Below are positions 2,981 to 25,931 of a stretch of DNA of 64,000 bases, one piece after another. The stretch's first letter is position 1. Every line of letters begins with the position of its first letter. Both the position numbers and the translations under genes were made by a program. The stretch is from Candidatus Woesebacteria bacterium (GTDB lineage Bacteria; Patescibacteriota; Microgenomatia; UBA1400; UBA1396), in the NCBI GenBank assembly GCA_963749595.1, contig CAVVNJ010000003.1, forward strand, positions 89,532 to 153,531, in the 5' to 3' direction. The notes under the pieces are model-generated. The model ran no database searches and was not told the DNA's origin. It worked only from the letters and a program-made list of their open reading frames with translations.

Positions 2981-3886
2981 ATGCCACGCGCACAAGAGAG
3001 ATTATCAGCCGAGCTATTTACCGTACGGGAAATCGAGATCGAAACGAAACGGGTAATTGCCGATCACCTGCCGACGATCTACGCCACTCGTAGTCGTACC
3101 GGGGATAGATTTTTGGATCCAATTCCACCCAACCAGATTGAATCTCACATCCGGCATTTTTTTTCCGAAGCCGATGAGGCCATTTTGGCTGCTGGCAAGC
3201 TGAGTCGCAGCCCGAGCGAAATTGTCCACCAGTTTCAATTATTTTTCCGTCAGTTGTACACCGTTGCCCAGATCGAAACGCAACTAGGAGCGATCGAAAA
3301 TGGTCGGACTGAGGCCTTAAAATTGACATCCGGATGCGAAGAACAAATTGAATATTTATTCGTCCATAGTGCCTCCGGCAATCTTTTTTCCCGTTGCGCC
3401 GCGATTAATTCCGGTCACAAAGGCTCAATTGGAGTAGTGGTAGTAATCGATGACGTAGCTCATTCTGGATCTCAGATGGGTTATGCTTTTGATCGCGCCA
3501 AGCGCACATATCCAGGGCGTCCGGTCGTGGTTTCGGTGGGGGTGATAACCGAGCGGGCCAAGGAATACATCCAAAGATCGATGGATCGAGATTTTGATAA
3601 ATTGCTTTATGTTGAAAACAGATTTTCTTTGAAGGAAATGATCGAGGCGGTGCCCGGACGAAAGAGGCGGAATGAGCTTACTAAGTTAGCCGAAACTTTC
3701 TTTACCGAGCAGCGCAATTTTGACTTTACCATTTCTGTTCGGGCTACTCACATCATCACCCCTTTTAAATTGCCGGACACCACTTCAAACGGCCCATTGG
3801 CGTTAATTCTCAACAACGATCGGGTTACTACCTTTATTCCTAGCCGTGCACTAACCCCTAATCGCTTGTACCCGACTGTGTTATGA
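2981..3886 (+). CDS. Array paralog 1/24, uncharacterised HSG-Q / THxxTPFKxPD family (short subtype, 301 aa)
   Basis: Motifs in order: IETKRVIADHLPTIYA; HIRHFF; FRQLYTVAQIETQ; VIDDVAHSGSQM; VVVSVGVITERA; ATHIITPFKLPDTTSNG; ends LYPTVL-stop. Confidence 0.9.
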   Translation: MPRAQERLSAELFTVREIEIETKRVIADHLPTIYATRSRTGDRFLDPIPPNQIESHIRHFFSEADEAILAAGKLSRSPSEIVHQFQLFFRQLYTVAQIETQLGAIENGRTEALKLTSGCEEQIEYLFVHSASGNLFSRCAAINSGHKGSIGVVVVIDDVAHSGSQMGYAFDRAKRTYPGRPVVVSVGVITERAKEYIQRSMDRDFDKLLYVENRFSLKEMIEAVPGRKRRNELTKLAETFFTEQRNFDFTISVRATHIITPFKLPDTTSNGPLALILNNDRVTTFIPSRALTPNRLYPTVL

Positions 3887-3895
3887 AATAGGCCT

Positions 3896-4822
3896 ATGAA
3901 AGAATCCCCCGAAATAGTTAGAGATTGTTACCTGGAGGGCCAGATAGAAACCCAAACTCAACGGGTTATTTCCGATCATCTTCCAACCATCTATGCGGTG
4001 GAAAAAGAAAGCGGCAGTTCTTTGGGCGAACCCTATGAATCGGAGAAAGTAGCTAAACATATTAGAAGTTTCTTTTATCAGGTTGACCTGGTGATAGATC
4101 AAGCTGGGAAAATACTTCAATCGCCACCAGAAGTTCAGAATGAATTTCGATTGATGTTTCGCCGTCTCTATACGGTAACCAATATTCAAGCTCACATCAT
4201 GGCAGTTGAGGAGGGTCAAAAAACTGCCCTGAAAATAACGGGCGGCAAACCCGAAAAAATATATGCAACCACTCCCCTGAGTCATTCGGGCCATTTATTT
4301 CTCCGGAACATGAAATTGGGATTTGCCAACTCGCCCTGTGTTAATCTTTGTACCAATAATCAAGGTATTGAGGCGATTTTGATTACCGACGATGTGTCTC
4401 ATTCCGGCTCGCAAATCGCGCAACTAGTATTGAGTCTAAAAGCTGCCCATCCAATGCCGATAGTAATTTCCTTGGGAGCGATTACTACTCGCGCCCAGGA
4501 TTTTATTCGTCAGTATCTTAATCCAAGTCAGGATTTGTTGATCGCCCAGGAATTAAAGTTAAGTTTAGAAGACATGATTGGCAAAATTAAACCGGAAAAA
4601 AAACACGAACAGCTACTACGGTTGGCTCAGGCATATTTCCAACGTCAAGGAGTGGACGTCGCCAAAGGAATGCAGGCTACCCACGTCATCACCCCGTTCA
4701 AATTACCAGATGATTTTTCCAACGGTGAGCTCTCTGTGGTCAAATCAAAAAGTGGGGAAATAACATTTGCTCTACGGCGGGTGAATACGTATCGCGACCG
4801 TTACTACCCAGAAGTATTTTAG
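3896..4822 (+). CDS. Array paralog 2/24 (short subtype, 308 aa)
   Basis: TQTQRVISDHLPTIYA; HIRSFF; FRRLYTVTNIQAH; ITDDVSHSGSQI; IVISLGAITTRA; ATHVITPFKLPDDFSNG; ends YYPEVF-stop. Confidence 0.9.
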   Translation: MKESPEIVRDCYLEGQIETQTQRVISDHLPTIYAVEKESGSSLGEPYESEKVAKHIRSFFYQVDLVIDQAGKILQSPPEVQNEFRLMFRRLYTVTNIQAHIMAVEEGQKTALKITGGKPEKIYATTPLSHSGHLFLRNMKLGFANSPCVNLCTNNQGIEAILITDDVSHSGSQIAQLVLSLKAAHPMPIVISLGAITTRAQDFIRQYLNPSQDLLIAQELKLSLEDMIGKIKPEKKHEQLLRLAQAYFQRQGVDVAKGMQATHVITPFKLPDDFSNGELSVVKSKSGEITFALRRVNTYRDRYYPEVF

Positions 4823-4827
4823 GACTT

Positions 4828-5754
4828 ATGGCTAATCGAGAAACCAACAATATCAAATCCGGGGAATTTAAAAGTCTCGCCGAAAGGATCGAACAGGAAA
4901 CCCGGCGAATTATTAACGAGCATCTGCCCACGGTTTATTCCATTAAGCCCAATGTCGATCCGACCAAGCGGTTGTTGTATTCTTCCCAGGAAGTTGAGTG
5001 TCACATCCGTTTCTTTTTTGATCAGGTTGATAAAGTTATTGAACAAGCGGGTTTAGAATTACTTTCTCCCAAGTCAGTTATGGGCGAGTTTAAATTAATG
5101 GTTCGTCGGTTGTATACCGTTGTGGGAGTTGAGTGTCAGACCAGAGCCATTGAAGCCGGAATGGCGGCGGCGCTGAAAATAGCCAAGCATCCGGAAAAAA
5201 TTTGGACGGTCGTTCCCAGTAGCCAGTCTGGTTGCTTATTTTCCCGTAGTGCTCCTCTTGCCTCAGTATTGCCGCAAGAAATTGAACCCAGCTTCGAGAT
5301 TAGAGTAATTCTAATTTTGGACGACGTCACTCATTCCGGATCCCAACTGGCCGGTTTGATTGGGACCTATAAAGCGGCCAACTCAACTTGGCCGATTGTT
5401 GTTTCCGTGGGCGCAGTTACGGAGCGGGCCAGGAGAAGGCTGGGATCCATACTTGGACCCGCCGATCAGCTGCTAGCGCAAGAACACCCCCTGTCTCTTG
5501 CGGAAATGATTGACCAGGTAAGCTTCATCCAGCGCCGGAATAGGCTGAGACAATTAGCAGTTCGTTATTTTGAGTTGCAAGAATGCAGTCCGATTGGAGC
5601 CATGGAAGCTACCCATATCATTACACCCTTCAAATTGCCGGACTATCTCTCTAACGGTGAATTAGGTGGCGTGGTTTGTGACAAAGTTGAAACCAATTTT
5701 ACCTTGTTGCCAGCTTATGTTGGGGATTTGAAGCTTTATCCATCAATCCTATAA
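4828..5754 (+). CDS. Array paralog 3/24 (short subtype, 308 aa)
   Basis: QETRRIINEHLPTVYS; HIRFFF; VRRLYTVVGVECQ; ILDDVTHSGSQL; IVVSVGAVTERA; ATHIITPFKLPDYLSNG; ends LYPSIL-stop. Confidence 0.9.
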   Translation: MANRETNNIKSGEFKSLAERIEQETRRIINEHLPTVYSIKPNVDPTKRLLYSSQEVECHIRFFFDQVDKVIEQAGLELLSPKSVMGEFKLMVRRLYTVVGVECQTRAIEAGMAAALKIAKHPEKIWTVVPSSQSGCLFSRSAPLASVLPQEIEPSFEIRVILILDDVTHSGSQLAGLIGTYKAANSTWPIVVSVGAVTERARRRLGSILGPADQLLAQEHPLSLAEMIDQVSFIQRRNRLRQLAVRYFELQECSPIGAMEATHIITPFKLPDYLSNGELGGVVCDKVETNFTLLPAYVGDLKLYPSIL

Positions 5755-5761
5755 GGGAATT

Positions 5762-6680
5762 ATGACCACTAAAGAACGAAAAATTCCAATTGAGATTGGG
5801 CCGCAAAAAGAAATTGAGCGGGAAACGCGGCGGATTATTGATGAGCATTTGCCAACCGTTTATTCTTTGCGCGGTGTCCCGGGGACTAATCGGGCCCCCT
5901 ACTCTCCGAAAACGGTTGAAAGACATCTTTTTCATTTTTTTGCTATCGCCGACAAAATTATTGAAAGTTCAGCCAGTGAGTTGCGGCTGGATCCAATGTA
6001 TATTACTATCTTTAAATTGATGTATCGCCAGTTATTTAGCGTGGCCGCGGTGGAGACTCAGATTAAAGCGATCGAACAAGGGAAAGCGGTGGCCCTGAAA
6101 CTGGCGGGACAGGACAGCGCTATCGGCTTTCCCATTCCAACCAGCGAATCTGCCAGGCTGTTTATTGAGAGCTCAAAATTAATTTTCCTAAATAGCCAAA
6201 AAAGGAAGAAGCCACGCGTTTCTCTCTTGGTGGACGATGTGGCTCATTCGGGGTCGCAGATGGCGGTAAAAATATATCGGGCAAAAAAAAAAGAATCCAG
6301 ACGCTCCAGTGGTAGTTTCGGTTGGAGTAATCACTGATCGGGCGATCGTGAAAATTAGAGAGGACATGACCGTCAACGATATTCTACTTTACCAAGAGAA
6401 GAAGCTTTGTCTAGAAGAGATGATTGCCAGGTTTCCCGACTACAACGGTCGGCAAAAATTGCTGGCTTTGGCCAAACGATTTTTTCATTCTCAGGGGTTG
6501 GACGCAGAGGGTGAGGAAAATGGCGGTTTACGGGCTACCCATATCATTACCCCCTTTAAGCTGCCTGATCGTTGTTCCAATGGCACATTAAGAGGCGTTA
6601 GATACCAAGATGAGTACGTCTTATTTACCCTTTTTGACGTTGATGTTAGCCTTGATAGCTTTTATCCCAAAGTGATTTGA
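5762..6680 (+). pseudogene. Array paralog 4/24, frameshifted in an A10 homopolymer
   Basis: ORF 5762-6337 carries RETRRIIDEHLPTVYS, FKLMYRQLFSVAAVETQ and LVDDVAHSGSQM, then reads YRAKKKESRRSSGSFGWSNH-stop. After the A10 run (6283-6292) the next frame reads NPDAPVVVSVGVITDRA...ATHIITPFKLPDRCSNG...FYPKVI-stop (ORF 6309-6680). A single 1-nt change in the run would restore a full-length copy. Confidence 0.85.
6283..6292 (+). repeat. A10 homopolymer at the frameshift site of copy 4
   Basis: Counted directly: gc + aaaaaaaaaa + g at 6281-6293. Confidence 0.95.
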
Positions 6681-6689
6681 AAGACCCCT

Positions 6690-7688
6690 ATGTTCCGTCG
6701 CTCCGCTGAAAATTCCTATTATTCTGAAATTAATCTTGACCGGCAGATTGAGCGGGAAACACAGCGGGTAATTGCCGATCATGTACCGACGATCTATGCC
6801 GTTCAAGGTTGGGCCTCGTCAGAATATGGCTACCCATTTTCGATTGCGACCGTTGATTCAGTTTGTGAGCAAGCCGCCGCCGCCCCGCAAAAAGTTGAGC
6901 AGCAAATTCGAAATTTTTTTGCGGCGGCGGACGAACTAATCGTCGAATCCGGCGCGCGACGCCAGATATCCCCGGATTCGGTTGAACGGTTTAAAATATT
7001 CTTCCGTCGACTTTACACGGTTGCTACGCCCGAGCTTCTTATTGGTGCGATTGAATCCGGTCAGACGACGGCTCGGAAACTTGTTGGTGGTGAGGAAAAT
7101 CGAGTTCTCTACTGGCAATCAGCCGGAAAATCGGGTGAATTGTTTCGCCACAACCTAGATTCGCGCTTCTATAATCCAAGTGGAGTGCTTACTCAGCCAG
7201 ATTATTCGCTAATTGATAAGCGATATCCTAAAGTGGCACTAATAGTGGATGATGTTATTCATTCTGGAGACCAGATCTGGAGATCGATCCGGGATGCCCG
7301 GGATTACCTGCCCCGCTCGGTGTCAATTGTGGTTTCGGTTGGTGCGACCACCACGCGAGGGTTGGAATCGGTTCGGAAGGTCTTGCGATCCAAAGACATT
7401 CTTATTTTTCAAGAAAAAAGATTGGGGTTAGGTGAGCTGATCGCCACTGCCCAAGTTTCGAAAAAACAGAAAAAGGAGTTATTAAAATTAGCGGCCGATT
7501 TTTTTTCTACCCAGGGATATGAGGTAAAAGTTGGTTTGTCAGCCACCCACATTATCACTACCTTTAAACTTCCCGATCGGCTTTCCAATGGCTGCTTGCG
7601 AAGTTTGACTGTCCAGGGACAACGAGTAGAATTCACACCCAAACCAGTATCACCTAAAATTCACCGTCTTTATCCCCAGGCGCTATAA
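6690..7688 (+). CDS. Array paralog 5/24 (QGWAS-insert subtype, 332 aa)
   Basis: RETQRVIADHVPTIYAVQGWASSEYGYPF; QIRNFF; FRRLYTVATPE; IVDDVIHSGDQI; IVVSVGATTTRG; ATHIITTFKLPDRLSNG; ends LYPQAL-stop. Confidence 0.9.
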   Translation: MFRRSAENSYYSEINLDRQIERETQRVIADHVPTIYAVQGWASSEYGYPFSIATVDSVCEQAAAAPQKVEQQIRNFFAAADELIVESGARRQISPDSVERFKIFFRRLYTVATPELLIGAIESGQTTARKLVGGEENRVLYWQSAGKSGELFRHNLDSRFYNPSGVLTQPDYSLIDKRYPKVALIVDDVIHSGDQIWRSIRDARDYLPRSVSIVVSVGATTTRGLESVRKVLRSKDILIFQEKRLGLGELIATAQVSKKQKKELLKLAADFFSTQGYEVKVGLSATHIITTFKLPDRLSNGCLRSLTVQGQRVEFTPKPVSPKIHRLYPQAL

Positions 7689-7696
7689 GGAAAAAC

Positions 7697-8623
7697 ATGA
7701 GAATTCGAACGGAAAGAAATCACGAAAGACAGTTGATTGGCGCCCAAATCGAAGCGGAAACGCAGCGGATTATTGATACTCACTGGCCAACGATCTATTC
7801 GCTGCAAGGAACGGAAATCGCGAATCGGAGGCAGTTTACTCCTGAGGAAATGGCCGAACACGTTCGTCATTTTTTCTCTCAAGTGGACCAAGTGATTAGA
7901 CAGCAGGCCAAGACCCATCATATCTCCTGCCCGATCGCTGATGAACTATCCCTTGCGATGCGCCAACTCTATACCGTGGCTTCAATTGATTCTCAGATTA
8001 ACGCGGTGCAACAAGGAAAAGAGATGGCTCTAAGCTTGGCTGGTGGAAACAACGAGGCTGTCTACTATGATCGCTTGTTAACCGAATCTGGAAGGCTTTT
8101 CAGTCGGACTCAACACGGAGTATTAGGCAATGATATCTTTCAGCATCCGATTGATCGTCGAGGAAAGAATGTCGTGCTTGTTACCGACGATGTGGCCCAC
8201 TCCGGATCACAAATGGCGATTCATATTGATGCTCTGCAGAGTATTTTTCCGACCACGCCGGTCGTAGCTTCGGTAGGAGTGATTACTAATCGCGGACGGA
8301 AAGTAATTGAGCAGGTTCTAAGAGGCCGAGACCAATTAATATTTCAAGAGAAGCGCCCTGATTTGGTCGAGCTGATCAGTCAGTCACAACATGACCATCG
8401 ACGAGCGGAATTACTGAAGCTGGCATGGCATTTTTTCCGCAGTCAAGGTCAGAATCCGGACGATGGTTTTAAGGCCACGCACATCATCACGCCTTTCAAA
8501 TTGCCTGACGGTGCCTCCAATGGAATCTTGGCAAAGATTTTTTTTTCCGAAAAAATTACCCATTTTACGATGTTTTCCCGGGTCCGTGCCAACCGCGATT
8601 TTATCTATCCGGGCGCGTTATAA
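7697..8623 (+). CDS. Array paralog 6/24 (short subtype, 308 aa)
   Basis: AETQRIIDTHWPTIYS; HVRHFF; MRQLYTVASIDSQ; VTDDVAHSGSQM; VVASVGVITNRG; ATHIITPFKLPDGASNG; ends IYPGAL-stop. Confidence 0.9.
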   Translation: MRIRTERNHERQLIGAQIEAETQRIIDTHWPTIYSLQGTEIANRRQFTPEEMAEHVRHFFSQVDQVIRQQAKTHHISCPIADELSLAMRQLYTVASIDSQINAVQQGKEMALSLAGGNNEAVYYDRLLTESGRLFSRTQHGVLGNDIFQHPIDRRGKNVVLVTDDVAHSGSQMAIHIDALQSIFPTTPVVASVGVITNRGRKVIEQVLRGRDQLIFQEKRPDLVELISQSQHDHRRAELLKLAWHFFRSQGQNPDDGFKATHIITPFKLPDGASNGILAKIFFSEKITHFTMFSRVRANRDFIYPGAL

Positions 8624-8655: not shown

Positions 8656-9648
8656 ATGCCAGCACGTCCGGAAAAAGCGATCATTAAAAAAATTGAGGCG
8701 GAAACTCACCGAGTTGTGGCGGATCATCAACCGACGATTTATGCATTGCAGGGGTGGGCTTCCGCTCAGAATGATTTCCCCTATACCAAATATGGGGTCG
8801 GCCTGAAAAATATGTGCGATCAAATCGCGGCCTCCCCGGATCAAGTAGATCAGCACATTCGTAGCTTTTTCAGCCGAGTGGATACAACGATTGACGATGC
8901 CGGCAAAAAAATTAACTCCCCCAACGAAATCATCGCTACGCTGAAGTTGTTTTTACGCCAGCTCTACACGGTTGCTTCGATTGAAAGCCACGTCAAAGCG
9001 GTTGAAGCTGGAGCAGTCGCTGCCCGCAAGCGGGCGGGTGGAAAGAGTGAGAAAGTGTTATTGTATGAAGCCAAGGGTCTATCCGGAGGGGTGTTTCAAA
9101 AAGATCTCGCTCTGATTCCTGCCGGACGGCGGCCCGAGGTGCCGTTGGGTGAAATACCGGACTGGGAACGAGGTCAATACAAAGTAATCCTCGTTGTGGA
9201 TGATGTAGCTCATTCCGGTGAGAATATGTCCCTCAACCTATTACGAGTACGGAACGTCTTTCCGAAAACCCCGGTAATTATTTCGGTGGGCGTAGTCACG
9301 ACGCGAGCACTGGAATGTATTCACACTGACAATCGATTTGACAAGACCGGGGACCAAATAATTTGGCAAGAAAAGCGTCTCAGTCTCGGGGAAATGATTG
9401 CGAAAGTAGAGCCCGAACCCAAACGGCAGGCCCTGCTTGATTTGGCATATGAATATTTTGGCCGTCAATCCCATGGGACTGAATTTGCCTTAAAGGCCAC
9501 CCACATCATTACGCCCTTTAAACTACCCGATCGAACCTCGAACGGTCCGTTGAGCAGGGTTTGTGCCCATCTTAACGACGATGGAGTCACGTTCGCGATG
9601 CATGAGGTGCAGTCAAAAAAGAATAGCTTGTACCCATCGTCTTTTTAA
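8656..9648 (+). CDS. Array paralog 7/24 (QGWAS-insert subtype, 330 aa)
   Basis: AETHRVVADHQPTIYALQGWASAQNDFPY; HIRSFF; LRQLYTVASIESH; VVDDVAHSGENM (N replaces Q); IIISVGVVTTRA; ATHIITPFKLPDRTSNG; ends LYPSSF-stop. Confidence 0.9.
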   Translation: MPARPEKAIIKKIEAETHRVVADHQPTIYALQGWASAQNDFPYTKYGVGLKNMCDQIAASPDQVDQHIRSFFSRVDTTIDDAGKKINSPNEIIATLKLFLRQLYTVASIESHVKAVEAGAVAARKRAGGKSEKVLLYEAKGLSGGVFQKDLALIPAGRRPEVPLGEIPDWERGQYKVILVVDDVAHSGENMSLNLLRVRNVFPKTPVIISVGVVTTRALECIHTDNRFDKTGDQIIWQEKRLSLGEMIAKVEPEPKRQALLDLAYEYFGRQSHGTEFALKATHIITPFKLPDRTSNGPLSRVCAHLNDDGVTFAMHEVQSKKNSLYPSSF

Positions 9649-10604
9649 TGGATTGTGATCTTATGCCCAGAAATAACCCGGAACGACTATCATCAGCTGA
9701 ACAGGCTATTGAGCAAGAAACGTTGCGGATCATTCGCGATCACCTGCCGACGGTCTATTCAATAAGTCTCAAGCGCAAGCCTGAGCTTTGTTGCCTTGAT
9801 GACGAGAAAGAAGTCGATCAGCATATTCGCTATTTTTTTTCCTGCGCCGATCAAGTAATTGGCAGAGTTGGACAAGAATTAGAGTTGCCTAAATCGGTTA
9901 TTAATGAGTTTAAGCTGGATTTTCGTAAACTCTATACCGTGGCTTCAATCGAGTCGCATCTTAAAGCTATCGAACTCGGTCGCGCTAAGGCGTTGCGAAT
10001 GGCCGGCGGTGACGAAAACGGAATTCTGGCGATGTCGACCCCAAGTAATTCCGGCCGGTTGATGAAAGACAGCGCAAAACTGGCTTTTACCACCAACCCT
10101 TACGAGAGATTTGGGCGGAAGATTAAAGTCATTTTATTGACCGACGATGCTTCGCACTCCGGGGCACATTTGGTGAACAAGCTTTGGAATATTCGTGATG
10201 ATTGGCCATATACGCCGATTGTGGTAGCGGTAGGGACAATTACCAAGCGAGCTCTGGAGCGTTTTTCTGATTCACCGGAAACTAATTGGGGAAGCGGCAG
10301 TCTCCGACCGATTGATGCGCTGGTTTATTCTGAACTGAGACTTTCTCTCCGGGACATGTTTGAACAAATCCCCAGTTTATCTAAGCGCCAACAAATGTAC
10401 AGCTTGGCGGAAAAATTTTTCGCTTCGCAAAATCAGCTTTTGCGCCGGGGCCTTAAAGCAACCCATCTCATTACGCCCTTTAAATTACCGGATTTTGTTT
10501 CTAATGGCGAGTTGGCCCAAATTCTGCTGAACGGGGAAAAAGTGTGTTTCACCATGAGGGCGGTGGAGACTCTTCCCGACTCACTTTATCCTCGAGTTTT
10601 GTAG
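9648..10604 (+). CDS. Array paralog 8/24 (short subtype, 318 aa)
   Basis: The ATG overlaps the TAA of copy 7 by 1 nt (TAATG). QETLRIIRDHLPTVYS; HIRYFF; FRKLYTVASIESH; LTDDASHSGAHL (H replaces Q); IVVAVGTITKRA; ATHLITPFKLPDFVSNG; ends LYPRVL-stop. Confidence 0.88.
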   Translation: MDCDLMPRNNPERLSSAEQAIEQETLRIIRDHLPTVYSISLKRKPELCCLDDEKEVDQHIRYFFSCADQVIGRVGQELELPKSVINEFKLDFRKLYTVASIESHLKAIELGRAKALRMAGGDENGILAMSTPSNSGRLMKDSAKLAFTTNPYERFGRKIKVILLTDDASHSGAHLVNKLWNIRDDWPYTPIVVAVGTITKRALERFSDSPETNWGSGSLRPIDALVYSELRLSLRDMFEQIPSLSKRQQMYSLAEKFFASQNQLLRRGLKATHLITPFKLPDFVSNGELAQILLNGEKVCFTMRAVETLPDSLYPRVL

Positions 10605-17498: not shown

Positions 17499-18409
17499 GT
17501 ATGACCAAAGTCGAGTTCAGTCCAACGGAAAATATCAGCGCGGCTATTCAACGCGAAACCAAGCGAGTAATCGACGACCATTTGCCGACAATTTATTCGG
17601 TTGATATTGCCGAAGAAAACGAACTCTATTCTCAGGAGGAGGTTGCTCGTCACATTCAAGAATATTTTTCTGTGGCTGATACAGCAATTCAGGCCGCAGG
17701 TAATGATCTTCAGATTCATATTCATTCGATTGAGTTATTTAAATTACTTTTCCGCAAGCTACATACGGTTGTTTCAATCGAATCACATCTGGCTGCGATC
17801 AGCCAAGGTTGGGCAGTGGCAACTCAGTTGGCCGGTGGTCACGCGGAAGATGTCTTGCTCTGCAGTAAGAGTATTCGAAAATCGGCCCAGCTTTTTCAAA
17901 ATAGCGCCAAACTTGGTATGGGGCGAGAATCATTGTATCCAAGTCACAATCATTACCAAGTACTGCTGATGATTGACGATGTCTCCCACTCCGGTGAACA
18001 GATGTCCGATGCCTTATATGGTGCCAAAATAGCATACCCCAAGTTGAAAATTGTTATTTCTTTGGGCGCAGTTACCAGGCGAGCCTTATCCCAAATCCAA
18101 AATAATCAGGAGTCCGGCGACAAAGTTATTTATCAGGAAAAAAAGTTGGCGCTTGATGAAATGATTGCCCAGATAAAATCAGCCTCGACTAGGAATGAAC
18201 TGGAGCGATTAGCTGAAGTATTTCTTCTCCGTCATACTTACGCTGTTGCGGCGGCGATGACAGCTACCCACATCATTACCCCTTTTAAAATGCCGGATGG
18301 AGTTTCCAATGGTCTGTTGAGTGGGTTGAAGATTAACGGTATTTTCCACAGTTTTGCTATGAAAGAAGTTTATGCCCTAAGAGATCGTCTATATCCCGAG
18401 GTACTTTAA
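17495..18409 (+). CDS. Array paralog 16/24 (short subtype, 304 aa)
   Basis: ATGA overlap with copy 15. QRETKRVIDDHLPTIYS; HIQEYF; FRKLHTVVSIESH; MIDDVSHSGEQM; IVISLGAVTRRA; ATHIITPFKMPDGVSNG; ends LYPEVL-stop. Confidence 0.9.
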   Translation: MSMTKVEFSPTENISAAIQRETKRVIDDHLPTIYSVDIAEENELYSQEEVARHIQEYFSVADTAIQAAGNDLQIHIHSIELFKLLFRKLHTVVSIESHLAAISQGWAVATQLAGGHAEDVLLCSKSIRKSAQLFQNSAKLGMGRESLYPSHNHYQVLLMIDDVSHSGEQMSDALYGAKIAYPKLKIVISLGAVTRRALSQIQNNQESGDKVIYQEKKLALDEMIAQIKSASTRNELERLAEVFLLRHTYAVAAAMTATHIITPFKMPDGVSNGLLSGLKINGIFHSFAMKEVYALRDRLYPEVL

Positions 18410-18411: not shown

Positions 18412-19335
18412 ATGAAGAAACTTGAAACCAGATCAGCGGAAAGAATAGCCAATTTTGAACTGGAGTTGGAAACCCGGCGGGTAATTGCCGATCATCTGCC
18501 GACGTTGTACGCGGTATTCGGTAAACATCCAGCCAAGAACGGCGAGCCGATAAATCCTGAGATCGCGGAAATGTGGTTGCGGTCATTCTTCCAGCTAGTT
18601 GACGAAACCATTGAGCGAGCCGGAAAAAAAGTGGACTCCAACCGACCAACGATCAATCAATTTAAAATATTCTACCGCCGGCTTTATACGGTGGCTCCAA
18701 TCAAGGCGCAGATTGCCGCTCTGGAGGATGGAAAGACGGCGGCCATCAAAATGGCCGGATCTGAAGACCGAGTGCGTTTTTATATGGTGGATAGTAGTTC
18801 CGGCCGTTTTTTTGCCAAAAATGCCGCCCTGATTATGAGCGATCCAGCGGTGTTCACCTATGGTCCGGTCAAGGAAACCGGGGCGCTGTTAATTGTGGAT
18901 GATGCGGCTCATTCCGGAATACAACTGGCTTGTGTGATCAGTGACGCTCTTCAGAAATATCCAGGGGTGCCGGTCGTGGCTTCCGTCGGTGTCATCACGC
19001 GCCGCGCTGAGTCTGCGCTGCACAATCGGTACCCTTCCCAGGCGAAAATAATTTATCAGCAGCGAGCTTTGGATTTGTCCGAGATGATTGGACAGGTCAA
19101 GTCCCTGGTCAGGCAGGCAGACTTGCGAATTTTGGCAGAGGAATTTTTCCGTTCTCAGGGTTGTTCGGTCGTTGTCGGCATGAGACTGACGCACATTATT
19201 ACGCCATTTAAAATGCCGGATGGCATTTCCAACGGAGGTTTAAATATCATCCGGCATCATAATAAAACGCTCAGATTTGACTTAGAAAACTATGATCTCA
19301 ACGATCGGGACGGATGTTATCCGGATTCGTTATGA
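18412..19335 (+). CDS. Array paralog 17/24 (short subtype, 307 aa)
   Basis: ELETRRVIADHLPTLYA; WLRSFF; YRRLYTVAPIKAQ; IVDDAAHSGIQL; VVASVGVITRRA; LTHIITPFKMPDGISNG; ends CYPDSL-stop. Confidence 0.9.
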   Translation: MKKLETRSAERIANFELELETRRVIADHLPTLYAVFGKHPAKNGEPINPEIAEMWLRSFFQLVDETIERAGKKVDSNRPTINQFKIFYRRLYTVAPIKAQIAALEDGKTAAIKMAGSEDRVRFYMVDSSSGRFFAKNAALIMSDPAVFTYGPVKETGALLIVDDAAHSGIQLACVISDALQKYPGVPVVASVGVITRRAESALHNRYPSQAKIIYQQRALDLSEMIGQVKSLVRQADLRILAEEFFRSQGCSVVVGMRLTHIITPFKMPDGISNGGLNIIRHHNKTLRFDLENYDLNDRDGCYPDSL

Positions 19336-20249
19336 AAAATTGCGAAAAACTACCGGCGGATATTGCTATTGAGCGGGAAACCAAGCGGGTTATTACCGAT
19401 CATCTTTCAACCATCTATGCCACCAGTCCAGGACGGGCGATCAAAGCTGGTCGCGGTGTGATCGAATGCGAGCCGGCGAGTCCAGTGGAAGTATCACGAC
19501 ACATCCATGATTTTTTTCGTCAGGTCGATAGACTGTTGACGCAGATCGGTCTGGATTATCATCTACCACTCTCCTGCGTTAAACAGGGAAAATTATTATT
19601 CCGCCAGCTTTACACCACGGTCTCGGTGGAGTCGCAAGTTGGCGCGATTATCCAGGGTGAAGAGGCGGCACGGCAAATAGCTGATGGTAAGGTTGAGAAT
19701 ATTATGACTTTTCCGGTCGACACCAGTTCCGGTTCCCTATTTAAAAAAAGCTGTAACTTGATTTTGGCGCAAAAAAACCGCCGCACTACCGATCCGACGG
19801 TAATCTTGGTCGTTGATGACGTTGCCCATTCCGGTGCGCAAATGGCGAGCGTGGTGGAAATGTTGCATTTCAATTATGGCAAGATTCCGGTGGTAATTTC
19901 TGTCGGAGCAGTTTCAATGCGGGCCGTAGATCGAATCAGCCCGAAATTTGGACCCAGCGATCAACTGCTTTACCAGGAGAAAAAACTCTGTTTGCTGGAA
20001 TTAATCGCTAGGCTCCCCAGCCAAGAACAACGCGACCAGCTGACCAAATTGATGGATCGGTATTGGTGTTACCAAAATCGCAATAATTCCATTGGTATGA
20101 ACGCCACGCATATTGTTACCGCTTTTAAAATGCCGGATAGCATGTCTAACGGCCCACTCGGACGAATCGACTATGAGGGTGAAAGGGTGACTTTTTCCTT
20201 GGGTAAAATTGCTCGTGAACAATCAAGTCTGTACCCGTCAGCAATTTAA
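19332..20249 (+). CDS. Array paralog 18/24 (short subtype, 305 aa from the ATG at 19332)
   Basis: The track ORF starts at 19314. I prefer the ATG at 19332 because it forms the same ATGA stop/start overlap seen at three other junctions. ERETKRVITDHLSTIYA; HIHDFF; FRQLYTTVSVESQ; VVDDVAHSGAQM; VVISVGAVSMRA; ATHIVTAFKMPDSMSNG; ends LYPSAI-stop. Confidence 0.88.
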   Translation: MKNCEKLPADIAIERETKRVITDHLSTIYATSPGRAIKAGRGVIECEPASPVEVSRHIHDFFRQVDRLLTQIGLDYHLPLSCVKQGKLLFRQLYTTVSVESQVGAIIQGEEAARQIADGKVENIMTFPVDTSSGSLFKKSCNLILAQKNRRTTDPTVILVVDDVAHSGAQMASVVEMLHFNYGKIPVVISVGAVSMRAVDRISPKFGPSDQLLYQEKKLCLLELIARLPSQEQRDQLTKLMDRYWCYQNRNNSIGMNATHIVTAFKMPDSMSNGPLGRIDYEGERVTFSLGKIAREQSSLYPSAI

Positions 20250-20257: not shown

Positions 20258-21172
20258 ATGAAAAATGTCGAAAAGAAAATTCGTTGGGAAAGAGAGGTTT
20301 CAAAAGATAAAATCGATTGGGAAACGCAGCGGGTAATCAACGATCACCTACCCACTATTTTTGCGGTCAACAGTCGGGAATCTGATGGACGGACTCTCTA
20401 TCCGCCAGAAGCGGTTGCGGCTCACATTCGGAGTTTTTTTGCTCTGGCTGATGCCAGTATTGACGAGGCAGGACGGGATTTGAGTTCACCGCCGCTAGTA
20501 GTTAAAACCTTCAAAATTATGTTTCGCCAACTGTTTACCGTGGCCACTATCGAGTCTCATCTCAAAGCCATTCAAGTTGGAAGAAAAACGGCACTAACTT
20601 TAGCCAGTGGGGACGCCAAAAAAGTTTTGATTTATCCCATCTGCGGTGGCTCCGGTACTATGTTTGTTGCCAGTGCCGAATTAGTTAAGCACCGCAAGGT
20701 AGCGGTTGACGAAGACAATCCGAAGGTTATTCTGTTGCTTGATGACGTTGCTCATTCCGGCAAGCAGATGCGTGAGGAAGTGGAAGACGTAATAAAACTT
20801 CATGATGTTCCAATTGTTGTTTCGGTTGGGGTGGCGACTAATCGTGCGTTGCAGCAATTATCGGAAGTCCTGACCTTACGAGACAAAATTATTTTTCAGA
20901 AAAAGGCATTGGATTTGACAGCGATGATCGCTCGGGAACGGATAGAATCTCGCCGCAGGGGTCTGAACGCTTTGGCTGAAGCCTTTTTTTATTCCCAATC
21001 AAGGAAAATCGAAAGGGCAATGCAAGCTACTCACATTATTACTCCTTTCAAATTGCCGGATATTGTTTCCAACGGTGAGCTTTGCATTATTCTTCATCAT
21101 GGTCGGTCACTGAGTTTCGCCATGAAGTATGACGATCCAGATTATAATGGCTTGTACCCCGCTGCTCTCTAA
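20258..21172 (+). CDS. Array paralog 19/24 (short subtype, 304 aa)
   Basis: DWETQRVINDHLPTIFA; HIRSFF; FRQLFTVATIESH; LLDDVAHSGKQM; IVVSVGVATNRA; ATHIITPFKLPDIVSNG; ends LYPAAL-stop. Confidence 0.9.
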   Translation: MKNVEKKIRWEREVSKDKIDWETQRVINDHLPTIFAVNSRESDGRTLYPPEAVAAHIRSFFALADASIDEAGRDLSSPPLVVKTFKIMFRQLFTVATIESHLKAIQVGRKTALTLASGDAKKVLIYPICGGSGTMFVASAELVKHRKVAVDEDNPKVILLLDDVAHSGKQMREEVEDVIKLHDVPIVVSVGVATNRALQQLSEVLTLRDKIIFQKKALDLTAMIARERIESRRRGLNALAEAFFYSQSRKIERAMQATHIITPFKLPDIVSNGELCIILHHGRSLSFAMKYDDPDYNGLYPAAL

Positions 21173-21178: not shown

Positions 21179-21207
21179 TTGAAAAATTAAGTCTATAGGC
21201 TTATAAT
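21179..21207 (+). promoter_or_regulatory. Internal array promoter TTGAAA-N17-TATAAT, 9 nt upstream of the ATG at 21217
   Basis: TTGAAA at 21179-21184, 17-nt spacer, TATAAT at 21202-21207, in the 44-nt gap between copies 19 and 20. Confidence 0.65.
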
Positions 21208-21216: not shown

Positions 21217-22152
21217 ATGACCAAAAAAGAAAATCCGGTTTTTTCCCGAGAGGATCAGCTGGAATTGGCTATTGAGCAAGAAACCCAACGGGTAATTGCC
21301 GATCACCTACCCACCATTTTTTCGGTCAGGAACCGTGAGACTGGAAAATTATATCAACCTCAAGACGTTGAAAAACACATTCGTTATTTTTTTTCGCAGG
21401 TGGATATGTCCATTGAACAGGCAGCGGGACGTCTATCCAATAGTTCGTTAATTCCAGAGACGGTAGTTAGACAACTGCAATTATTCTTCCGCCAACTTTA
21501 CACTGTGGCGTCAATCGAGTCTCATTACCGGGCAATTGAGGCTGGCCGGGACGCGGCTTTAAAAATGGTGGAGGGTGAGGAAAGTAGAATCGCCTGTTAT
21601 TCCGCTTCTACTATGTCAGGTCGCCTTTTCTATGAGAGCGCTAGATTGTTGTACGCTTGGGATCCATACGAAGTTCCAAAAGAAAGGCCGTCCCGAGACG
21701 TTGGTGTCATGCTGATCACTGATGACGTGGCTCATTCCGGAAAGCAGCTGCGCAGTCTGGCCAGCAATGTTCGGCACTATCACGATGTTCCGCTCATTAT
21801 TTCGGTTGGAGTAGTTACAACCCGCGGAAGAGAAAAAATCAATGAAGTGCTGGGTCGGAAAGATCTCCTAATTGCCCAGGAGGGTAGGCCTTGTCTCAAA
21901 GAGCTGATTTCCCAGGATCCTTCGACTCGGCGGCGGGAACAACTAACTCAGTTGGCCGAACAATTTTTTCGTTTCCAGTTGGAAGATCCGGAGGTCTGTT
22001 TGCGGGCGACACATATCATCACGCCCTTCAAACAGCCAGATGCTTGTTCCAATGGCAAGCTGGCTGGAGTTGTGGAAGACGGCGGCTATACCTATTTTGC
22101 GATGCGACCGGTTGATTCATATCAGGATCGTCTTTACCCAAAAGCACTGTAA
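21217..22152 (+). CDS. Array paralog 20/24 (short subtype, 311 aa)
   Basis: EQETQRVIADHLPTIFS; HIRYFF; FRQLYTVASIESH; ITDDVAHSGKQL; LIISVGVVTTRG; ATHIITPFKQPDACSNG; ends LYPKAL-stop. Confidence 0.9.
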   Translation: MTKKENPVFSREDQLELAIEQETQRVIADHLPTIFSVRNRETGKLYQPQDVEKHIRYFFSQVDMSIEQAAGRLSNSSLIPETVVRQLQLFFRQLYTVASIESHYRAIEAGRDAALKMVEGEESRIACYSASTMSGRLFYESARLLYAWDPYEVPKERPSRDVGVMLITDDVAHSGKQLRSLASNVRHYHDVPLIISVGVVTTRGREKINEVLGRKDLLIAQEGRPCLKELISQDPSTRRREQLTQLAEQFFRFQLEDPEVCLRATHIITPFKQPDACSNGKLAGVVEDGGYTYFAMRPVDSYQDRLYPKAL

Positions 22153-22158: not shown

Positions 22159-23055
22159 ATGAGACGACTTGAACAACTACCACCACTAACCGATCTGGAA
22201 AAAGAGACCGAGCGGGTTATCGCTGAGCACTATCCAACGATCTATTCCTTGCGCGGTATGTCCGAACGTGACTACCAGACCCCAGAAACGGTGGCCGGAC
22301 ATATTCGTTATTTCTTCAGCCAAGTTGATGAGGGCATTGACCAAGTAGGGAAGTTTATAAATTCACCGGCTCCGGTTCGCGAGCAACTTAAACTGATGTT
22401 TCGCCGCCTCTATCACGTGGCCTCAATTAAATCTCAAGTTAAGGCAATGAAAGCCGGGCATGCCGAAGCTCTCGGTCGCACTGGAGGGCAAGAAGACAAG
22501 ATATTGATTGACCGGGTTGATAGTCAATCCGGTCGTCTTTTCAAGAGTTGCCAGAGGTTGGCTTTTGGCCCATCTTCTCCGGTTTTTGGTCTCCATATTA
22601 ACCCTAAGGTTGTTTTAATCTGTGATGATGTTGCCCACTCCGGTCAGCAAATGTGCGGTACAGTTCGGCGGGTGCATCGAAGTTATCCCAATGCCGAATT
22701 AGTAATTTCGTTGGGGACCATTACCAGCCGCGCGGAGGAAAAGATTGAGGGAAACCTACTTGCAAGGGATGCGCTTATTTATCAGCAAAAAGTTTCTGAT
22801 TTATCCGAGATGATCAGTCAGGTTCGGAGTGCCAATGCCAGGGAGCAATTGCGCAGTCTAGCCGAAAAGTTTTTCCAGGTATTTGGCAAAGCACCGTGCC
22901 GCCCGATGCGGGCCACCCACATTATCACGCCTTTTAAGTTGCCGGATGGCGTATCCAATGGTTCCTTGACGAGTTTTTTTATTAATGGTCGAGATGTCAA
23001 TTTCTTGATGAGCGACTCGGTATCTGAGGACTATCTTTATCCGGAAGCTTTATAG
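22159..23055 (+). CDS. Array paralog 21/24 (short subtype, 298 aa)
   Basis: EKETERVIAEHYPTIYS; HIRYFF; FRRLYHVASIKSQ; ICDDVAHSGQQM; LVISLGTITSRA; ATHIITPFKLPDGVSNG; ends LYPEAL-stop. Confidence 0.9.
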   Translation: MRRLEQLPPLTDLEKETERVIAEHYPTIYSLRGMSERDYQTPETVAGHIRYFFSQVDEGIDQVGKFINSPAPVREQLKLMFRRLYHVASIKSQVKAMKAGHAEALGRTGGQEDKILIDRVDSQSGRLFKSCQRLAFGPSSPVFGLHINPKVVLICDDVAHSGQQMCGTVRRVHRSYPNAELVISLGTITSRAEEKIEGNLLARDALIYQQKVSDLSEMISQVRSANAREQLRSLAEKFFQVFGKAPCRPMRATHIITPFKLPDGVSNGSLTSFFINGRDVNFLMSDSVSEDYLYPEAL

Positions 23056-23067: not shown

Positions 23068-24051
23068 ATGTCCAAATTTGAGTTAACCCGACGATCCGAA
23101 GCATCACTCGCCCAACAAATTGCGGCGGAAACCCAGCGTGTCATCGATGATCACGTTGGAACGATTTATGCCCTGCAACCTTGGGCCTCCGGTTCCCGCC
23201 AATACCCTTTTACTGGATTAACGCCGGAAAAATTGGCGGAGAAGCTCGCCGCCGGTCCTCAGGAAGTGGCGGCTCAGATTACTAAGTTTTTTGCCAAAGC
23301 TGATTCATTGGTGGAAAAAGTCGCTCGTGGTTTGGTCTTAAGCCCGGGAGTGACCGACCACTTTAAATTAATGTTGCGTCGGCTTTATACAGTAGCCTCG
23401 ATTGAGTCACAGATCGCGGCCATTGAAACCGGCCGTGCCGCGGCCCTCCAAATAACCAAGGGAAGAGAATCAGGAATTGGCTATTTTCCGGTTGAAAGTA
23501 AATCGGGAGAGCTTTTCAAACGCAACGTCCAATTAATTTTTACAGAGAAAATGGCGGTTTTCGACTACGACAACTGCCACGCTTTGCCCAGAATAAAAAC
23601 TATTTTAGTTATTGATGACGTAGCTCATTCGGGAAAACAAATGTTTGAACATTTAAATTACCTTCATCATCAATTTCCAAACGTGCCAGTAGTACTTTCT
23701 TTGGCGGTGATTACTAATCGCGCGGAAAAAGAGATTGTCACCCAGCTGCGCCCCGTCGACAAATTTATTTTTCAGGAAAAGCGTCCGGATCTACGGGCGA
23801 TGATTAATGAAATCGGATCAGAGAAAATTCGTTGGGAATTAACGAGATTAGCTGAGAAATTTTTTATTGCCCAGGGCCATCATTCGGCTTCTGGTCTAAG
23901 AGCCACTCATATTACAACCCCCTTTAAGCTGCCTGACATTGTTTCCAACAATATTTTAGACCAGGTTGGCGCCTGCGGCGAAGTGACTGTACCTTTTACT
24001 TTTCGCGAGGTGGTGGGAAGACGCGACCGCTTGTACCCAACGGCAATCTAG
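23068..24051 (+). CDS. Array paralog 22/24 (QGWAS-like insert subtype, 327 aa)
   Basis: AAETQRVIDDHVGTIYALQPWASGSRQYPF; QITKFF; LRRLYTVASIESQ; VIDDVAHSGKQM; VVLSLAVITNRA; ATHITTPFKLPDIVSNN; ends LYPTAI-stop. Confidence 0.9.
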   Translation: MSKFELTRRSEASLAQQIAAETQRVIDDHVGTIYALQPWASGSRQYPFTGLTPEKLAEKLAAGPQEVAAQITKFFAKADSLVEKVARGLVLSPGVTDHFKLMLRRLYTVASIESQIAAIETGRAAALQITKGRESGIGYFPVESKSGELFKRNVQLIFTEKMAVFDYDNCHALPRIKTILVIDDVAHSGKQMFEHLNYLHHQFPNVPVVLSLAVITNRAEKEIVTQLRPVDKFIFQEKRPDLRAMINEIGSEKIRWELTRLAEKFFIAQGHHSASGLRATHITTPFKLPDIVSNNILDQVGACGEVTVPFTFREVVGRRDRLYPTAI

Positions 24052-24063
24052 AGATGAGGGCAG

Positions 24064-24969
24064 ATGATGAGTCGTAAAAAAATCGAATCTGAAACCAAGC
24101 GCGTGATCGTTGATCATTTGCCAACGGTATTTGCTGCGAAAGGTTGGGTGTCTGTTGACAATATTGATCCGCACGAACTTGCCGAACGTTTAGATCAACT
24201 ACCGAAAAAAATATCTGAGCAGATAAACAAATATTTTGCCCTCGCCGACAGCTTGATTGAGCAGGCGGGCAAAACAGTTGGTGCTCAAAAAAATAACATC
24301 GAGACTTTTAAATTATTTTTCCGCCAACTTTACACCGTGGCCTCCATTGAATCCCACATTGCGGCAATTGAATCAGGAAGAAACGCGGCCTTAAAAATTA
24401 CCGGCAGTCAGGAAGAAGCAATAATTGTTTGGTCGGTTACCAGTCGTTCCGGTGGCGTGTTTTTCCGTAATTTCCAACGTTTGTCTGGCGAAGTTCAGTC
24501 TGAGGGAGTTCAAGTTAAGCCGAGGGTGATTCTCATCTTGGACGACGTTGCCCACAGTGGCGATCAAATGAGGTTGACCATTCATGACGCCAAGCAGGCC
24601 TACGCGTCACTGCCAGTGGTTGTCTCATTGGGTGTCACCACCACGCGGGCTCTCGAGGCCATGTCGCCCGCGCTAGGTCCAAGCGATCAGATTATCTATC
24701 ACTCCAAGCGACCTTGCCTTAAAGAGCTGATTGCCGATGTCCCCTCCCCGGTTGCACGAATGGAACTAATCGATCTGGCCAGAAATTTTTTCACCTTGCA
24801 AGGTTATAAGAGCATTGAAAATGCCATGATGGCTACACACATTATTACACCCTTTAAATTACCTGACTCCACTTCCAACGGGGTGCTGGGGCAGTTGTAC
24901 TTCGATCAAGATTACTTGTCATTTACCGGAGTAGGCAGTAAAGACAGAATCTACCCTTGGAGTTTCTGA
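24064..24969 (+). CDS. Array paralog 23/24 (QGWAS-like insert subtype, 301 aa)
   Basis: ESETKRVIVDHLPTVFAAKGWVSVDNIDP; QINKYF; FRQLYTVASIESH; ILDDVAHSGDQM; VVVSLGVTTTRA; ATHIITPFKLPDSTSNG; ends IYPWSF-stop. Confidence 0.9.
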   Translation: MMSRKKIESETKRVIVDHLPTVFAAKGWVSVDNIDPHELAERLDQLPKKISEQINKYFALADSLIEQAGKTVGAQKNNIETFKLFFRQLYTVASIESHIAAIESGRNAALKITGSQEEAIIVWSVTSRSGGVFFRNFQRLSGEVQSEGVQVKPRVILILDDVAHSGDQMRLTIHDAKQAYASLPVVVSLGVTTTRALEAMSPALGPSDQIIYHSKRPCLKELIADVPSPVARMELIDLARNFFTLQGYKSIENAMMATHIITPFKLPDSTSNGVLGQLYFDQDYLSFTGVGSKDRIYPWSF

Positions 24970-25931
24970 TGAAGAGTTCTGAAAAATTGTCGGCTGAAAA
25001 AAGTATTGATTGCCGAATCGCCGCCGAAACAGAGCGGGTTGTCCGCGACCATGTGTCAACTATTTTTGCGGTGCAGGGAATTATCTCCGATGATCAACCT
25101 TTTCCCTACACCAAGCTCAAGGCCTACCAGATTGTCGATGCGGTCACCACGGCTCCAGAGAGGGCAGAAAAACATATCCGCGAGTTTTTTGCCAAAGCCG
25201 ATTTGATGATTGATCAAGAGGCCGCAGCCTTATCTCTTGATCCAGCGGTAGCTGGCGAATTAAAACTCATGTTCCGGCGATTGTATACGGTTGTTGATAT
25301 TGAATTGCAGATTAAGGCGATGATGAAGGGTAGGTCCTTGGCCCTGAAGATGGTTGGTGGAAAAGAAAAAAATTTACTCTGTTTCGCGATCAGTTCACGA
25401 TCTGGTAATTTATTTAGGCGCAGCCAACAGTTGCTATTCCGCAGCGATCCTTTCGCCAATGCCGAGGCCGATATTAAAGCTTTGCTAGTAACGGACGATG
25501 TCTCCCACTCTGGGGACCAGATGGAGGGGGTAATTGGGGTGCTCAAGGCGGCCTATCCCACCATCCCAATTGTTGTTTCGTTGTCCGCGATTACGACCCG
25601 AGCCAAAACTCGTCTTGCCGACAGACTTAGTGGCGGCCAAGATAGGCTGTTATTCCAAGCCCATCGGCTTTGTCTGAGCGAAATGATTAAGCAGGTAAAA
25701 TCTGAAGCAAAAAGGGATAAATTAACGAATTTAGCGCGCGCCTTTATTAATCGTCAGGGAAAAGTTTTTGACGAAGTAATGGAGGCCACTCATATCATTA
25801 CCCCTTTCAAGCTACCGGACGAGCTGTCCAATGGTGAGCTGGCGACCATTGATGAAGGTGGGTACCCGATTTATTTCACTTTTTGCTGTGTCGGCTATCC
25901 CAATGATCGTCTTTATCCCAAGGCAATCTGA
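24969..25931 (+). CDS. Array paralog 24/24 (QGWAS-like insert subtype, 320 aa from the ATG at 24969)
   Basis: The track ORF starts at a TTG (24957). I prefer the ATG at 24969, which overlaps the TGA of copy 23 by 1 nt (TGATG). AAETERVVRDHVSTIFAVQGIISDDQPFPY; HIREFF; FRRLYTVVDIELQ; VTDDVSHSGDQM; IVVSLSAITTRA; ATHIITPFKLPDELSNG; ends LYPKAI-stop. Confidence 0.88.
   Translation: MKSSEKLSAEKSIDCRIAAETERVVRDHVSTIFAVQGIISDDQPFPYTKLKAYQIVDAVTTAPERAEKHIREFFAKADLMIDQEAAALSLDPAVAGELKLMFRRLYTVVDIELQIKAMMKGRSLALKMVGGKEKNLLCFAISSRSGNLFRRSQQLLFRSDPFANAEADIKALLVTDDVSHSGDQMEGVIGVLKAAYPTIPIVVSLSAITTRAKTRLADRLSGGQDRLLFQAHRLCLSEMIKQVKSEAKRDKLTNLARAFINRQGKVFDEVMEATHIITPFKLPDELSNGELATIDEGGYPIYFTFCCVGYPNDRLYPKAI

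Follow-up and report, generated by a model that had tools for sequence, protein, structure and literature searches.

Why do 24 adjacent and strongly diverged genes all come to a stop at exactly the same point of their proteins? The question is raised by a 64,000-nt stretch of contig CAVVNJ010000003.1 (assembly GCA_963749595.1, Candidatus Woesebacteria; positions 89,532 to 153,531), hereafter the window, whose own numbering is used throughout and which comes from an uncultured bacterium with a probably reduced genome. At positions 2981-25931, it carries 24 head-to-tail paralogous open reading frames (ORFs) on the + strand, of 298-334 aa each, here called copies 1 to 24, the products of which end in Tyr-Pro, two further residues and a terminal Leu, Ile or Phe. 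Judging from sequence comparison and a structural model, these are divergent, stand-alone proteins of the type I phosphoribosyltransferase (PRTase) fold, whose nearest known relatives are the PRTase-CE family (PF24390), including the effectors of type III-A retrons. The closest known analogue of their tail is the essential C-terminal peptide of these retron effectors. From the model, we infer a docking of the tail, in cis, onto two invariant motifs (SxSGxLF and the FKLPD loop), taken as active-site loops, beside the phosphoribosyl pyrophosphate (PRPP) loop.

The common end of the array proteins

The pentapeptide YPxx[L/I/F] with the stop codon forms the direct end of 23 of the 24 ORFs, and of copy 4 as well once its frameshift is repaired; with that one proviso, all the C-termini listed in the first-pass annotation were found where it had placed them. 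The consensus reads [D/N]-R-[L]-Y-P-x-[V/A/S]-[L/I/F]-COOH. In the 23 copies other than copy 4, the Tyr is specified by TAT (12) or TAC (11), the Pro by all four CCN codons (7/6/8/2), and termination is by TAA (8), TAG (7) or TGA (8); copy 4 has TAT, CCC and TGA. From the stop to the next start, the distance varies from a 4-nt overlap to a spacer of 57-58 nt, the junction sequence varies too, and several junctions overlap (ATGA, TAATG). Because the Tyr, Pro and stop codons are interchangeable and the junctions variable, the constraint on the tail acts, on this codon evidence, at the level of the protein and not of the DNA, and the tail is under selection. A cause at DNA or RNA level (translational coupling, a ribosome-binding site, a repeat element) could be ruled out, codons, stops and junctions all being variable.

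The length of the tail is equally constant. Amongst the 24 copies, there are nine distinct lengths for the segment between the initial Met and TxR, 16 between TxR and DD, seven between DD and PD and five between PD and YP, while YP is always followed by three residues. Together with the codon data, this upholds the original description of the tail as a constrained free C-terminus of fixed length. The fixed end is not imposed by the sequence downstream, since loss of the stop codon would extend 12 of the 24 copies by at most 10 residues, and none has drifted. The copies and their tails (with stop codon) are located as follows.

2981..3886 (+), copy 1; tail YPTVL-stop at 3869-3886
3896..4822 (+), copy 2; tail YPEVF-stop at 4805-4822
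4828..5754 (+), copy 3; tail YPSIL-stop at 5737-5754
5762..6680 (+), copy 4, frameshifted; tail YPKVI-stop at 6663-6680, in the +1 frame
6690..7688 (+), copy 5; tail YPQAL-stop at 7671-7688
7697..8623 (+), copy 6; tail YPGAL-stop at 8606-8623
8656..9648 (+), copy 7; tail YPSSF-stop at 9631-9648
9648..10604 (+), copy 8, start at 9648 or 9663; tail YPRVL-stop at 10587-10604
10611..11615 (+), copy 9; tail YPTVL-stop at 11598-11615
11669..12673 (+), copy 10; tail YPGRI-stop at 12656-12673
12683..13642 (+), copy 11; tail YPSSL-stop at 13625-13642
13701..14636 (+), copy 12; tail YPQVL-stop at 14619-14636
14633..15565 (+), copy 13; tail YPNVL-stop at 15548-15565
15562..16491 (+), copy 14; tail YPAAL-stop at 16474-16491
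16539..17498 (+), copy 15; tail YPEVI-stop at 17481-17498
17495..18409 (+), copy 16; tail YPEVL-stop at 18392-18409
18412..19335 (+), copy 17; tail YPDSL-stop at 19318-19335
19332..20249 (+), copy 18, ORF opening at 19314 and database protein starting at 19332; tail YPSAI-stop at 20232-20249
20258..21172 (+), copy 19; tail YPAAL-stop at 21155-21172
21217..22152 (+), copy 20, chosen for modelling; tail YPKAL-stop at 22135-22152
22159..23055 (+), copy 21; tail YPEAL-stop at 23038-23055
23068..24051 (+), copy 22; tail YPTAI-stop at 24034-24051
24064..24969 (+), copy 23; tail YPWSF-stop at 24952-24969
24969..25931 (+), copy 24, ORF opening with TTG at 24957 and ATG at 24969; tail YPKAI-stop at 25914-25931

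The pairwise identity of the paralogs averages 38%, with a range of 31-54%; copies 12 and 13 (54%) and copies 15 and 16 (50%) are the most alike, and the closest paralogs tend to be neighbours in the array. With copies so diverged, and with the same gene order for copies 1-12 in an independent Logan assembly (ERR12037366), an assembly artefact could be dismissed. Copy 4 is broken by a run of ten A at 6283-6292, such that its FYPKVI end lies in the +1 frame. Repair to nine A yields an intact protein of 305 aa, to 12 A one of 306 aa, and the 184-aa ORF called at copy 4 in the Logan assembly is exactly the product of an 11-A run. The frameshift could be due to phase variation by slippage, to the decay of this copy into a pseudogene or to a homopolymer sequencing error. 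Eleven of the 17 homopolymer runs of at least 8 nt in the window lie within the 23-kb array (about 36% of the window), spanning 3157-21394.

Outside this contig, the family is extremely rare: all searches combined returned about 10 members, none of them annotated. With the family profile, a word-indexed search through 5.8 billion proteins gave 18 matches, 16 of these from this contig. HMMER, run in full on 1.84 billion representatives, gave 36 at E<=1e-3, of which the contig's own genes make up about 25 (counting both fragments of copy 4); an additional search used a profile of the family's distant subfamily. GTDB genomes, IMG/VR, plasmids and phages were searched with no match, and JGI metagenomes contain two family loci. 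YP is kept in all seven complete outside homologs, down to about 25% identity, and the stop position first noticed in the array is shared by six of these proteins from other samples (IYPAAL, LYPTSL, MYPNSH, LYPHSL, IYPNSL and RYPDAL), the seventh having one extra residue (LYPGQLE). Three marginal matches (P0033-35; E ~1e-4) lack the tail stop position. The tail also occurs in single-copy homologs in other gene contexts. On three short metagenomic contigs, a second paralog starts right after the first (L008, 1169-2038; L009, 1420-1851; L028, ~1230-1835), and tandem multiplicity thus recurs in the family and is not unique to this genome.

The predicted fold and the modelled place of the tail

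Pfam recognises PRTase-CE (PF24390) in nine of 25 members at E<0.01 (best 1.6e-7) and not in the other 16. Copy 5 scores 31.3 bits (cutoff 27) and copy 1 scores 19.4; most copies stay under the gathering score, and the alignment is limited to central profile positions ~66-173 of 253. Several members match the PADLOC models for retron PRTase_III-A (the best model in seven of 25, best E 7e-5), and no curated enzyme model of NCBIfam was matched. A sequence search of the PDB gave marginal PRTase matches only, on the DD..SG loop, aligned to the PRPP loops of OPRT and other PRTases. With the model of copy 20, the top PDB matches of Foldseek are all type I PRTases (OPRT, UPRT, HGXPRT and APRT), at weak E values (best 6e-3, probability 0.98; range 0.9-1.0) and template modelling (TM) scores of 0.28 (query) and 0.46 (target). 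The best BFVD match is a “PRTase-CE domain-containing protein” of Siphoviridae sp. (E 1.3e-5, query TM score 0.48), followed by proteins of giant viruses; amongst the Pfam families, PF24390 matches best. The “CE” stands for conflict effector, a term explained in PMC12871103 with reference to Nicastro et al. 2023 (NAR 51:11479). Weak Pfam matches to Mur_ligase_C in four members were set aside as Rossmann-like background, and a match of the N-terminal helix to 2n1d (E 0.1) as chance.

Four groups of residues are invariant: the N-terminal helix ETxRVIxDHLPT, S-x-SG-x-LF after strand 125-128, DDVAHSG, and ATHIITPFKLPDxxSNG. In the PRPP-loop motif V-x-L-x-x-DDVAHSG-x-Q, predicted on strand 164-172, with helix 176-188 after it, the D, D, H, S and G are present in 24 of 24 copies. 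The chain can be divided into an N-terminal four-helix part, the PRPP loop, a pyrophosphate-loop-like S-x-SG-x-LF and the C-terminal motif ATHIITPFKLPD-x-x-SNG. In core fold and in where the PRPP loop lies, the proteins agree with the classical type I PRTases (OPRT, UPRT, HG(X)PRT, APRT), but the similarity is a remote structural one, at 9-17% identity, and the array proteins have an extra N-terminal helical part of ~120 residues.

The AlphaFold2 (AF2) monomer model of copy 20, built from an alignment of 25 sequences, has a predicted local distance difference test score (pLDDT) of 90.3 and a predicted TM score of 0.88. Its last 11 residues are ordered at pLDDT 87-88; where the first-pass annotation had left it to structure prediction whether the tail packs or is disordered, the monomer model speaks for packing. 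Isolated β-bridges are assigned to residues 38, 45, 272 and 305. We have modelled copy 20 again with the last eight residues cut from every aligned sequence: the bridge at the invariant K272 was gone while those at 38 and 45 were retained, from which it follows that R305 pairs with K272 in the model. The largest drops in pLDDT upon deletion concern residues 131-140, with the SxSGxLF motif (from 92 to 79), 141-150 (89 to 83), 271-280 (82 to 76) and 291-300 (92 to 86). Amongst the pockets proposed at the outset, these changes (the lost K272 bridge and the lower pLDDT over 131-150 and 271-280) suggest packing on the protein's own conserved loops, taken as those of its active site. The C-terminal part of classical PRTases forms a “hood” that shapes the site for the base, the nucleophile or the substrate, and the position of the hood matches the modelled site of the tail.

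The 20-30 residues that precede the tail had been described as very variable. This is true of their sequence, the commonest residue in a column occurring in ~25-31% of the copies, but not of their structure: in the model, the segment is a confidently placed β-hairpin (strands 284-287 and 290-293; pLDDT ~92) with a nearly invariant Phe, and is followed by the semi-conserved D-R-L. Several other loops vary at least as much, and the hairpin, on which the first-pass annotation would place the copy-specific function, is thus one variable element of several. Mutual information between the variable tail positions and the rest of the protein, calculated for 28 sequences, was uninformative, the top columns reflecting singletons or kinship.

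A mechanism can be sketched along these lines. After the variable β-hairpin, the chain would fold back in cis, and the tail would belong to the catalytic domain instead of hanging loose from it. The backbone of R305 would pair with K272 in the FKLPD loop. This loop and the S-x-SG-x-LF motif would line a groove next to the PRPP loop, into which the YP-x-x-hydrophobic end would fit as a plug. The chain would have to stop there, either because its end is buried or because the α-carboxylate is in use, and activity would depend on the tail, just as Retron-Eco11 effectors depend on their similar YYPxxLR peptide. We give an even chance to this reading, in which the tail, docked in cis, either completes the active site of a PRTase-CE-like enzyme or gates it.

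Retron effectors and the competing explanations

The effectors of type III-A retrons, which are PRTase-like, have a 24-residue C-terminal tail made up of a hypervariable linker and a conserved YYPxxLRxx (PMC12746101); a near-identical tail peptide has, therefore, been described before. In the Retron-Eco11 effector, the double substitution Y405A/Y406A abolishes phage defence, and activation of the effector lowers PRPP; the function of the YYPxxLR peptide has no known mechanism (PMC12746101). In an Eco11-like effector from E. coli genomes and 20 homologs, we found PF24390 and PF24409 (wHTH-PRTase_assc, with a winged helix-turn-helix, wHTH) in every case. All 15 sequences retrieved, out of the 21 effectors recovered, end in Y[Y/F]PxxLR plus 1-9 residues, as does a copy on a Shigella plasmid. 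In the two complete E. coli genomes with this Eco11-like retron, NZ_AP027709.1 and NZ_CP059835.1 (loci L012, L013 and L014), the gene for the PRTase effector is split by an IS3 insertion, and its tail-bearing remainder has an annotation of its own, as a hypothetical protein.

The order of motifs in the array proteins (PRPP loop with SGxQ, SxSG, LPD, YPxxL) matches that in the retron effectors, where GSEG and MPN take the place of SxSG and LPD. Like the type III-A3 effectors (Retron-Eco11, cluster 67_3; PF24390 + PF24409), they have a PRPP loop of the form hhhh-[TD]D-x-x-x-SG-x-Q (h, hydrophobic), a glycine loop (GSEG in retrons, SxSG here), h-P-[N/D] after a strand (MPNNxP in retrons, LPDxxSN here), and a variable stretch with [Y/L]-Y-P-x-[S/T/A/V]-L at the C-terminus. 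Unlike them, they end at the hydrophobic residue, whereas the retron chain runs on with an invariant Arg and 1-9 residues; their tail is modelled as docked, while that of the retron protein is reported as disordered; and they come in 24 tandem copies, as against one gene per system. The retron motif G-x14-P-N-N-x-P is not present in the array proteins, which have an analogous G-x12-P-D-x-x-S-N (ATHIITPFKLPDxxSN), and none of the 25 members contains the winged-helix domain PF24409. The two tails may plausibly be homologous. To learn which module bears the YPxxL peptide, we searched for retron PRTase effectors without a fused wHTH: the matches on plasmids were all fused forms and phages gave no match.

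Several observations weigh against the proposed docking and against its retron analogy. The tail contacts are read from DSSP strings and from pLDDT in blocks of 10 residues; the alignment for the tail-deleted model was also short of two outgroup sequences, a difference that may explain part of the drop in pLDDT; and the model is that of a monomer, with which a domain-swapped or trans arrangement is compatible. The family has no member of known enzymatic activity. Profile-profile similarity to the retron effectors is weak (hhalign E 0.0018, probability 15%), and Pfam places the retron peptide at the end of PF24409, not in the PRTase domain. As, in addition, the retron tail is disordered in the authors' model (PMC12746101), the likeness may be one of convergence.

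The principal alternative is a handle acting in trans, that is, a tail that enters a neighbouring subunit (in homo- or hetero-oligomers of the paralogs) or is read by a shared adaptor or protease of the ClpX, Tsp or PDZ type, for common assembly, regulation or degradation. An invariant, free, hydrophobic C-terminal peptide on 24 diverged copies would suit a common reader, and many type I PRTases, e.g., the fold match PDB 1oro, are oligomers in which each active site borrows a loop from the adjacent subunit. C-terminal recognition tails are well known, such as the ssrA-type ...LAA-COOH read by ClpX or the ligands of Tsp/Prc and PDZ domains, and the array tails resemble them in their free C-terminus with a small-hydrophobic end (xAL, xVL, xAI, xSF). 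They differ in the invariant Tyr-Pro at -5/-4, which, to our knowledge, degrons and PDZ ligands usually do not need, and in being modelled as packed: the monomer model places the tail with confidence, bridged to K272 of the same chain. As for a reader encoded in the genome, which the first-pass annotation had suggested looking for, no PDZ, S41/tail-specific protease or Clp gene, nor any secretion or defence-partner gene, was encountered among the scanned ORFs of the 64-kb window, which is a weak negative. For the tail of the related retron protein, reported as disordered, it has been suggested that other proteins can reach it to bind or modify it (PMC12746101). On balance, we consider a handle in trans rather unlikely.

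The peptide could also be a true homolog of that in retrons and serve as a regulated switch, or as a peptide that binds nucleic acid or a trigger, being docked or released only upon activation. The two share the core [aromatic/aliphatic]-Y-P-x-[small]-L behind a variable linker within the same Pfam family, retron defence depends on the tail tyrosines, and the tail of the Ec86 effector is reported to touch the msr/msd nucleic acid (PMC12746101). Yet the members have no wHTH, the window gave no Rfam match, and no reverse-transcriptase or defence-partner family was found amongst its scanned ORFs, which comprise most of those outside the array. Moreover, the retron chain continues beyond the point where the array chain stops, and the linker here is a short structured hairpin; this makes such a switch improbable. 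It is typical of secreted effectors to occur in large arrays of diverged paralogs, and some secretion systems read C-terminal signals with a hydrophobic residue near the end. An export or sorting signal on effectors secreted by a symbiotic or episymbiotic bacterium is nevertheless very improbable, as the tail is modelled as packed and not free, its strict Tyr-Pro and exact length are unlike the degenerate secretion signals known, and the scanned ORFs include no secretion-system genes. Finally, the common end might have no special role and be inherited by descent, or be imposed by coupling to the next gene or its ribosome-binding site. The copies are homologous and the overlapping junctions make coupling plausible, but the freedom of synonymous codons, of all three stops and of the junctions largely refutes this. 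All other segments vary in length at the same divergence, none of the 12 copies that a single stop mutation could extend has been extended, and the tail persists in single-copy homologs elsewhere; we hardly give this explanation credence.

Other systems resemble the array in part. ShosT, the toxin of the ShosTA defence system, has a noncanonical PRTase domain and requires PRPP binding for toxicity (PMC12961424). One array copy has a weak PADLOC match to ShosT (0.0074), but the similarity is marginal, the DprA-like partner ShosA is not found here, and no YPxxL tail is reported for ShosT. The typical sensor or partner genes of conflict systems do not occur beside the array, the neighbouring ORFs having neither a PADLOC nor an Rfam match.

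To return to the docking in cis, the tail links a nearly unknown protein family to the retron PRTase-CE effectors, whose near-identical peptide is essential for defence, and the short tether here and the modelled placement on two invariant motifs offer a testable idea for the role of the peptide in both families. Beyond the fold and the tail itself, we infer the exact contacts, the catalytic role and the nature of the array as a repertoire of diversified effectors that target nucleotides or PRPP. A bolder extension, which we regard as speculative and unlikely, is that of a germline-encoded repertoire of 24 PRTase-CE-type sensor-effectors, the hypervariable loops and hairpin of which would each recognise a different invader-derived trigger or substrate, with the constant YPxx-hydrophobic plug as their common switch, either completing or gating the PRPP site. 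If it were true, the same peptide-in-groove switch would explain the essential YYPxxLR of retron type III-A effectors, where the peptide would sit on a long variable linker and its docking be controlled by the module of multicopy single-stranded DNA and wHTH.

The genomic setting of the array

The array lies in a slot between a gene of the Trp_repressor family and metG, for which two relatives are available for comparison. The flanking genes and the promoter-like sites within the array are as follows.

2149..2457 (+), Trp_repressor-family (YerC-like) gene, left flank; syntenic with relatives L007 (80% identity) and L015
2454..2909 (+), 151-aa ORF directly upstream of the array; no family match, not conserved in the relatives
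25955..27382 (+), methionine--tRNA ligase gene (metG), right flank; syntenic with L007 (87% identity) and L015 (78%)
11632..11660 (+), sigma-70-like site TTGAAT-17-TATAAT between copies 9 and 10 (spacer of 53 nt)
13664..13692 (+), sigma-70-like site TTGATT-17-TATAAT between copies 11 and 12 (spacer of 58 nt)
16501..16529 (+), sigma-70-like site TTGAAA-17-TAAAAT between copies 14 and 15 (spacer of 47 nt)
21179..21207 (+), sigma-70-like site TTGAAA-17-TATAAT between copies 19 and 20 (spacer of 44 nt)

The slot holds 24 PRTase-like genes here, a single copy in L007 and none in L015 (region 7773-11434 of L015), where an AAA_14/DUF4143 ATPase gene lies there instead, on the opposite strand. The single copy of L007 is at best 46% identical to any copy of the array. 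As the content of the slot differs between close relatives, the array is accessory and fast-evolving; and because the flanks are 78-87% identical to those of the relatives and the copies at most 46% to the single copy of one of them, strong diversifying pressure, of the kind met in conflict systems, is suggested by these comparisons. Twenty-four old, diverged and mostly intact tandem copies, in a slot that is empty or single-copy in relatives, are an unusual expansion for a bacterium with a small genome. The closest GTDB genome (L015; methionyl-tRNA synthetase 78% identical) is a metagenome-assembled genome (MAG) labelled “uncultured Pseudomonadales”, and the next relatives by this synthetase (~40%) are mostly MAGs of the Patescibacteria/candidate phyla radiation. 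The small ORFs that immediately precede metG or the array here, in L007 and in L015 are unrelated to one another.

The four best promoter-like sites on the + strand of the array all fall in its four long spacers; elsewhere, the genes abut or overlap. This suggests several putative transcription units, roughly copies 1-9, 10-11, 12-14, 15-19 and 20-24, although the overall count of promoter-like sites was not above that in shuffled controls.

Some further genes of the window may be mentioned. The gene for elongation factor P (EF-P; 30862-31428, -) adjoins one for a 347-aa protein resembling a class II aminoacyl-tRNA synthetase (31452-32495, -), which may be an EF-P modifying enzyme of the EpmA/PoxA type. 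Two adjacent large ORFs, at 52509-54257 (+) and 54273-55619 (+), specify proteins of 582 and 448 aa with no Pfam or PADLOC match. A gene for a small MazG-like nucleotide pyrophosphohydrolase (519-911, +; 26 bits, just below the Pfam cutoff) lies beside rmuC, and occurs at the same place in L015.

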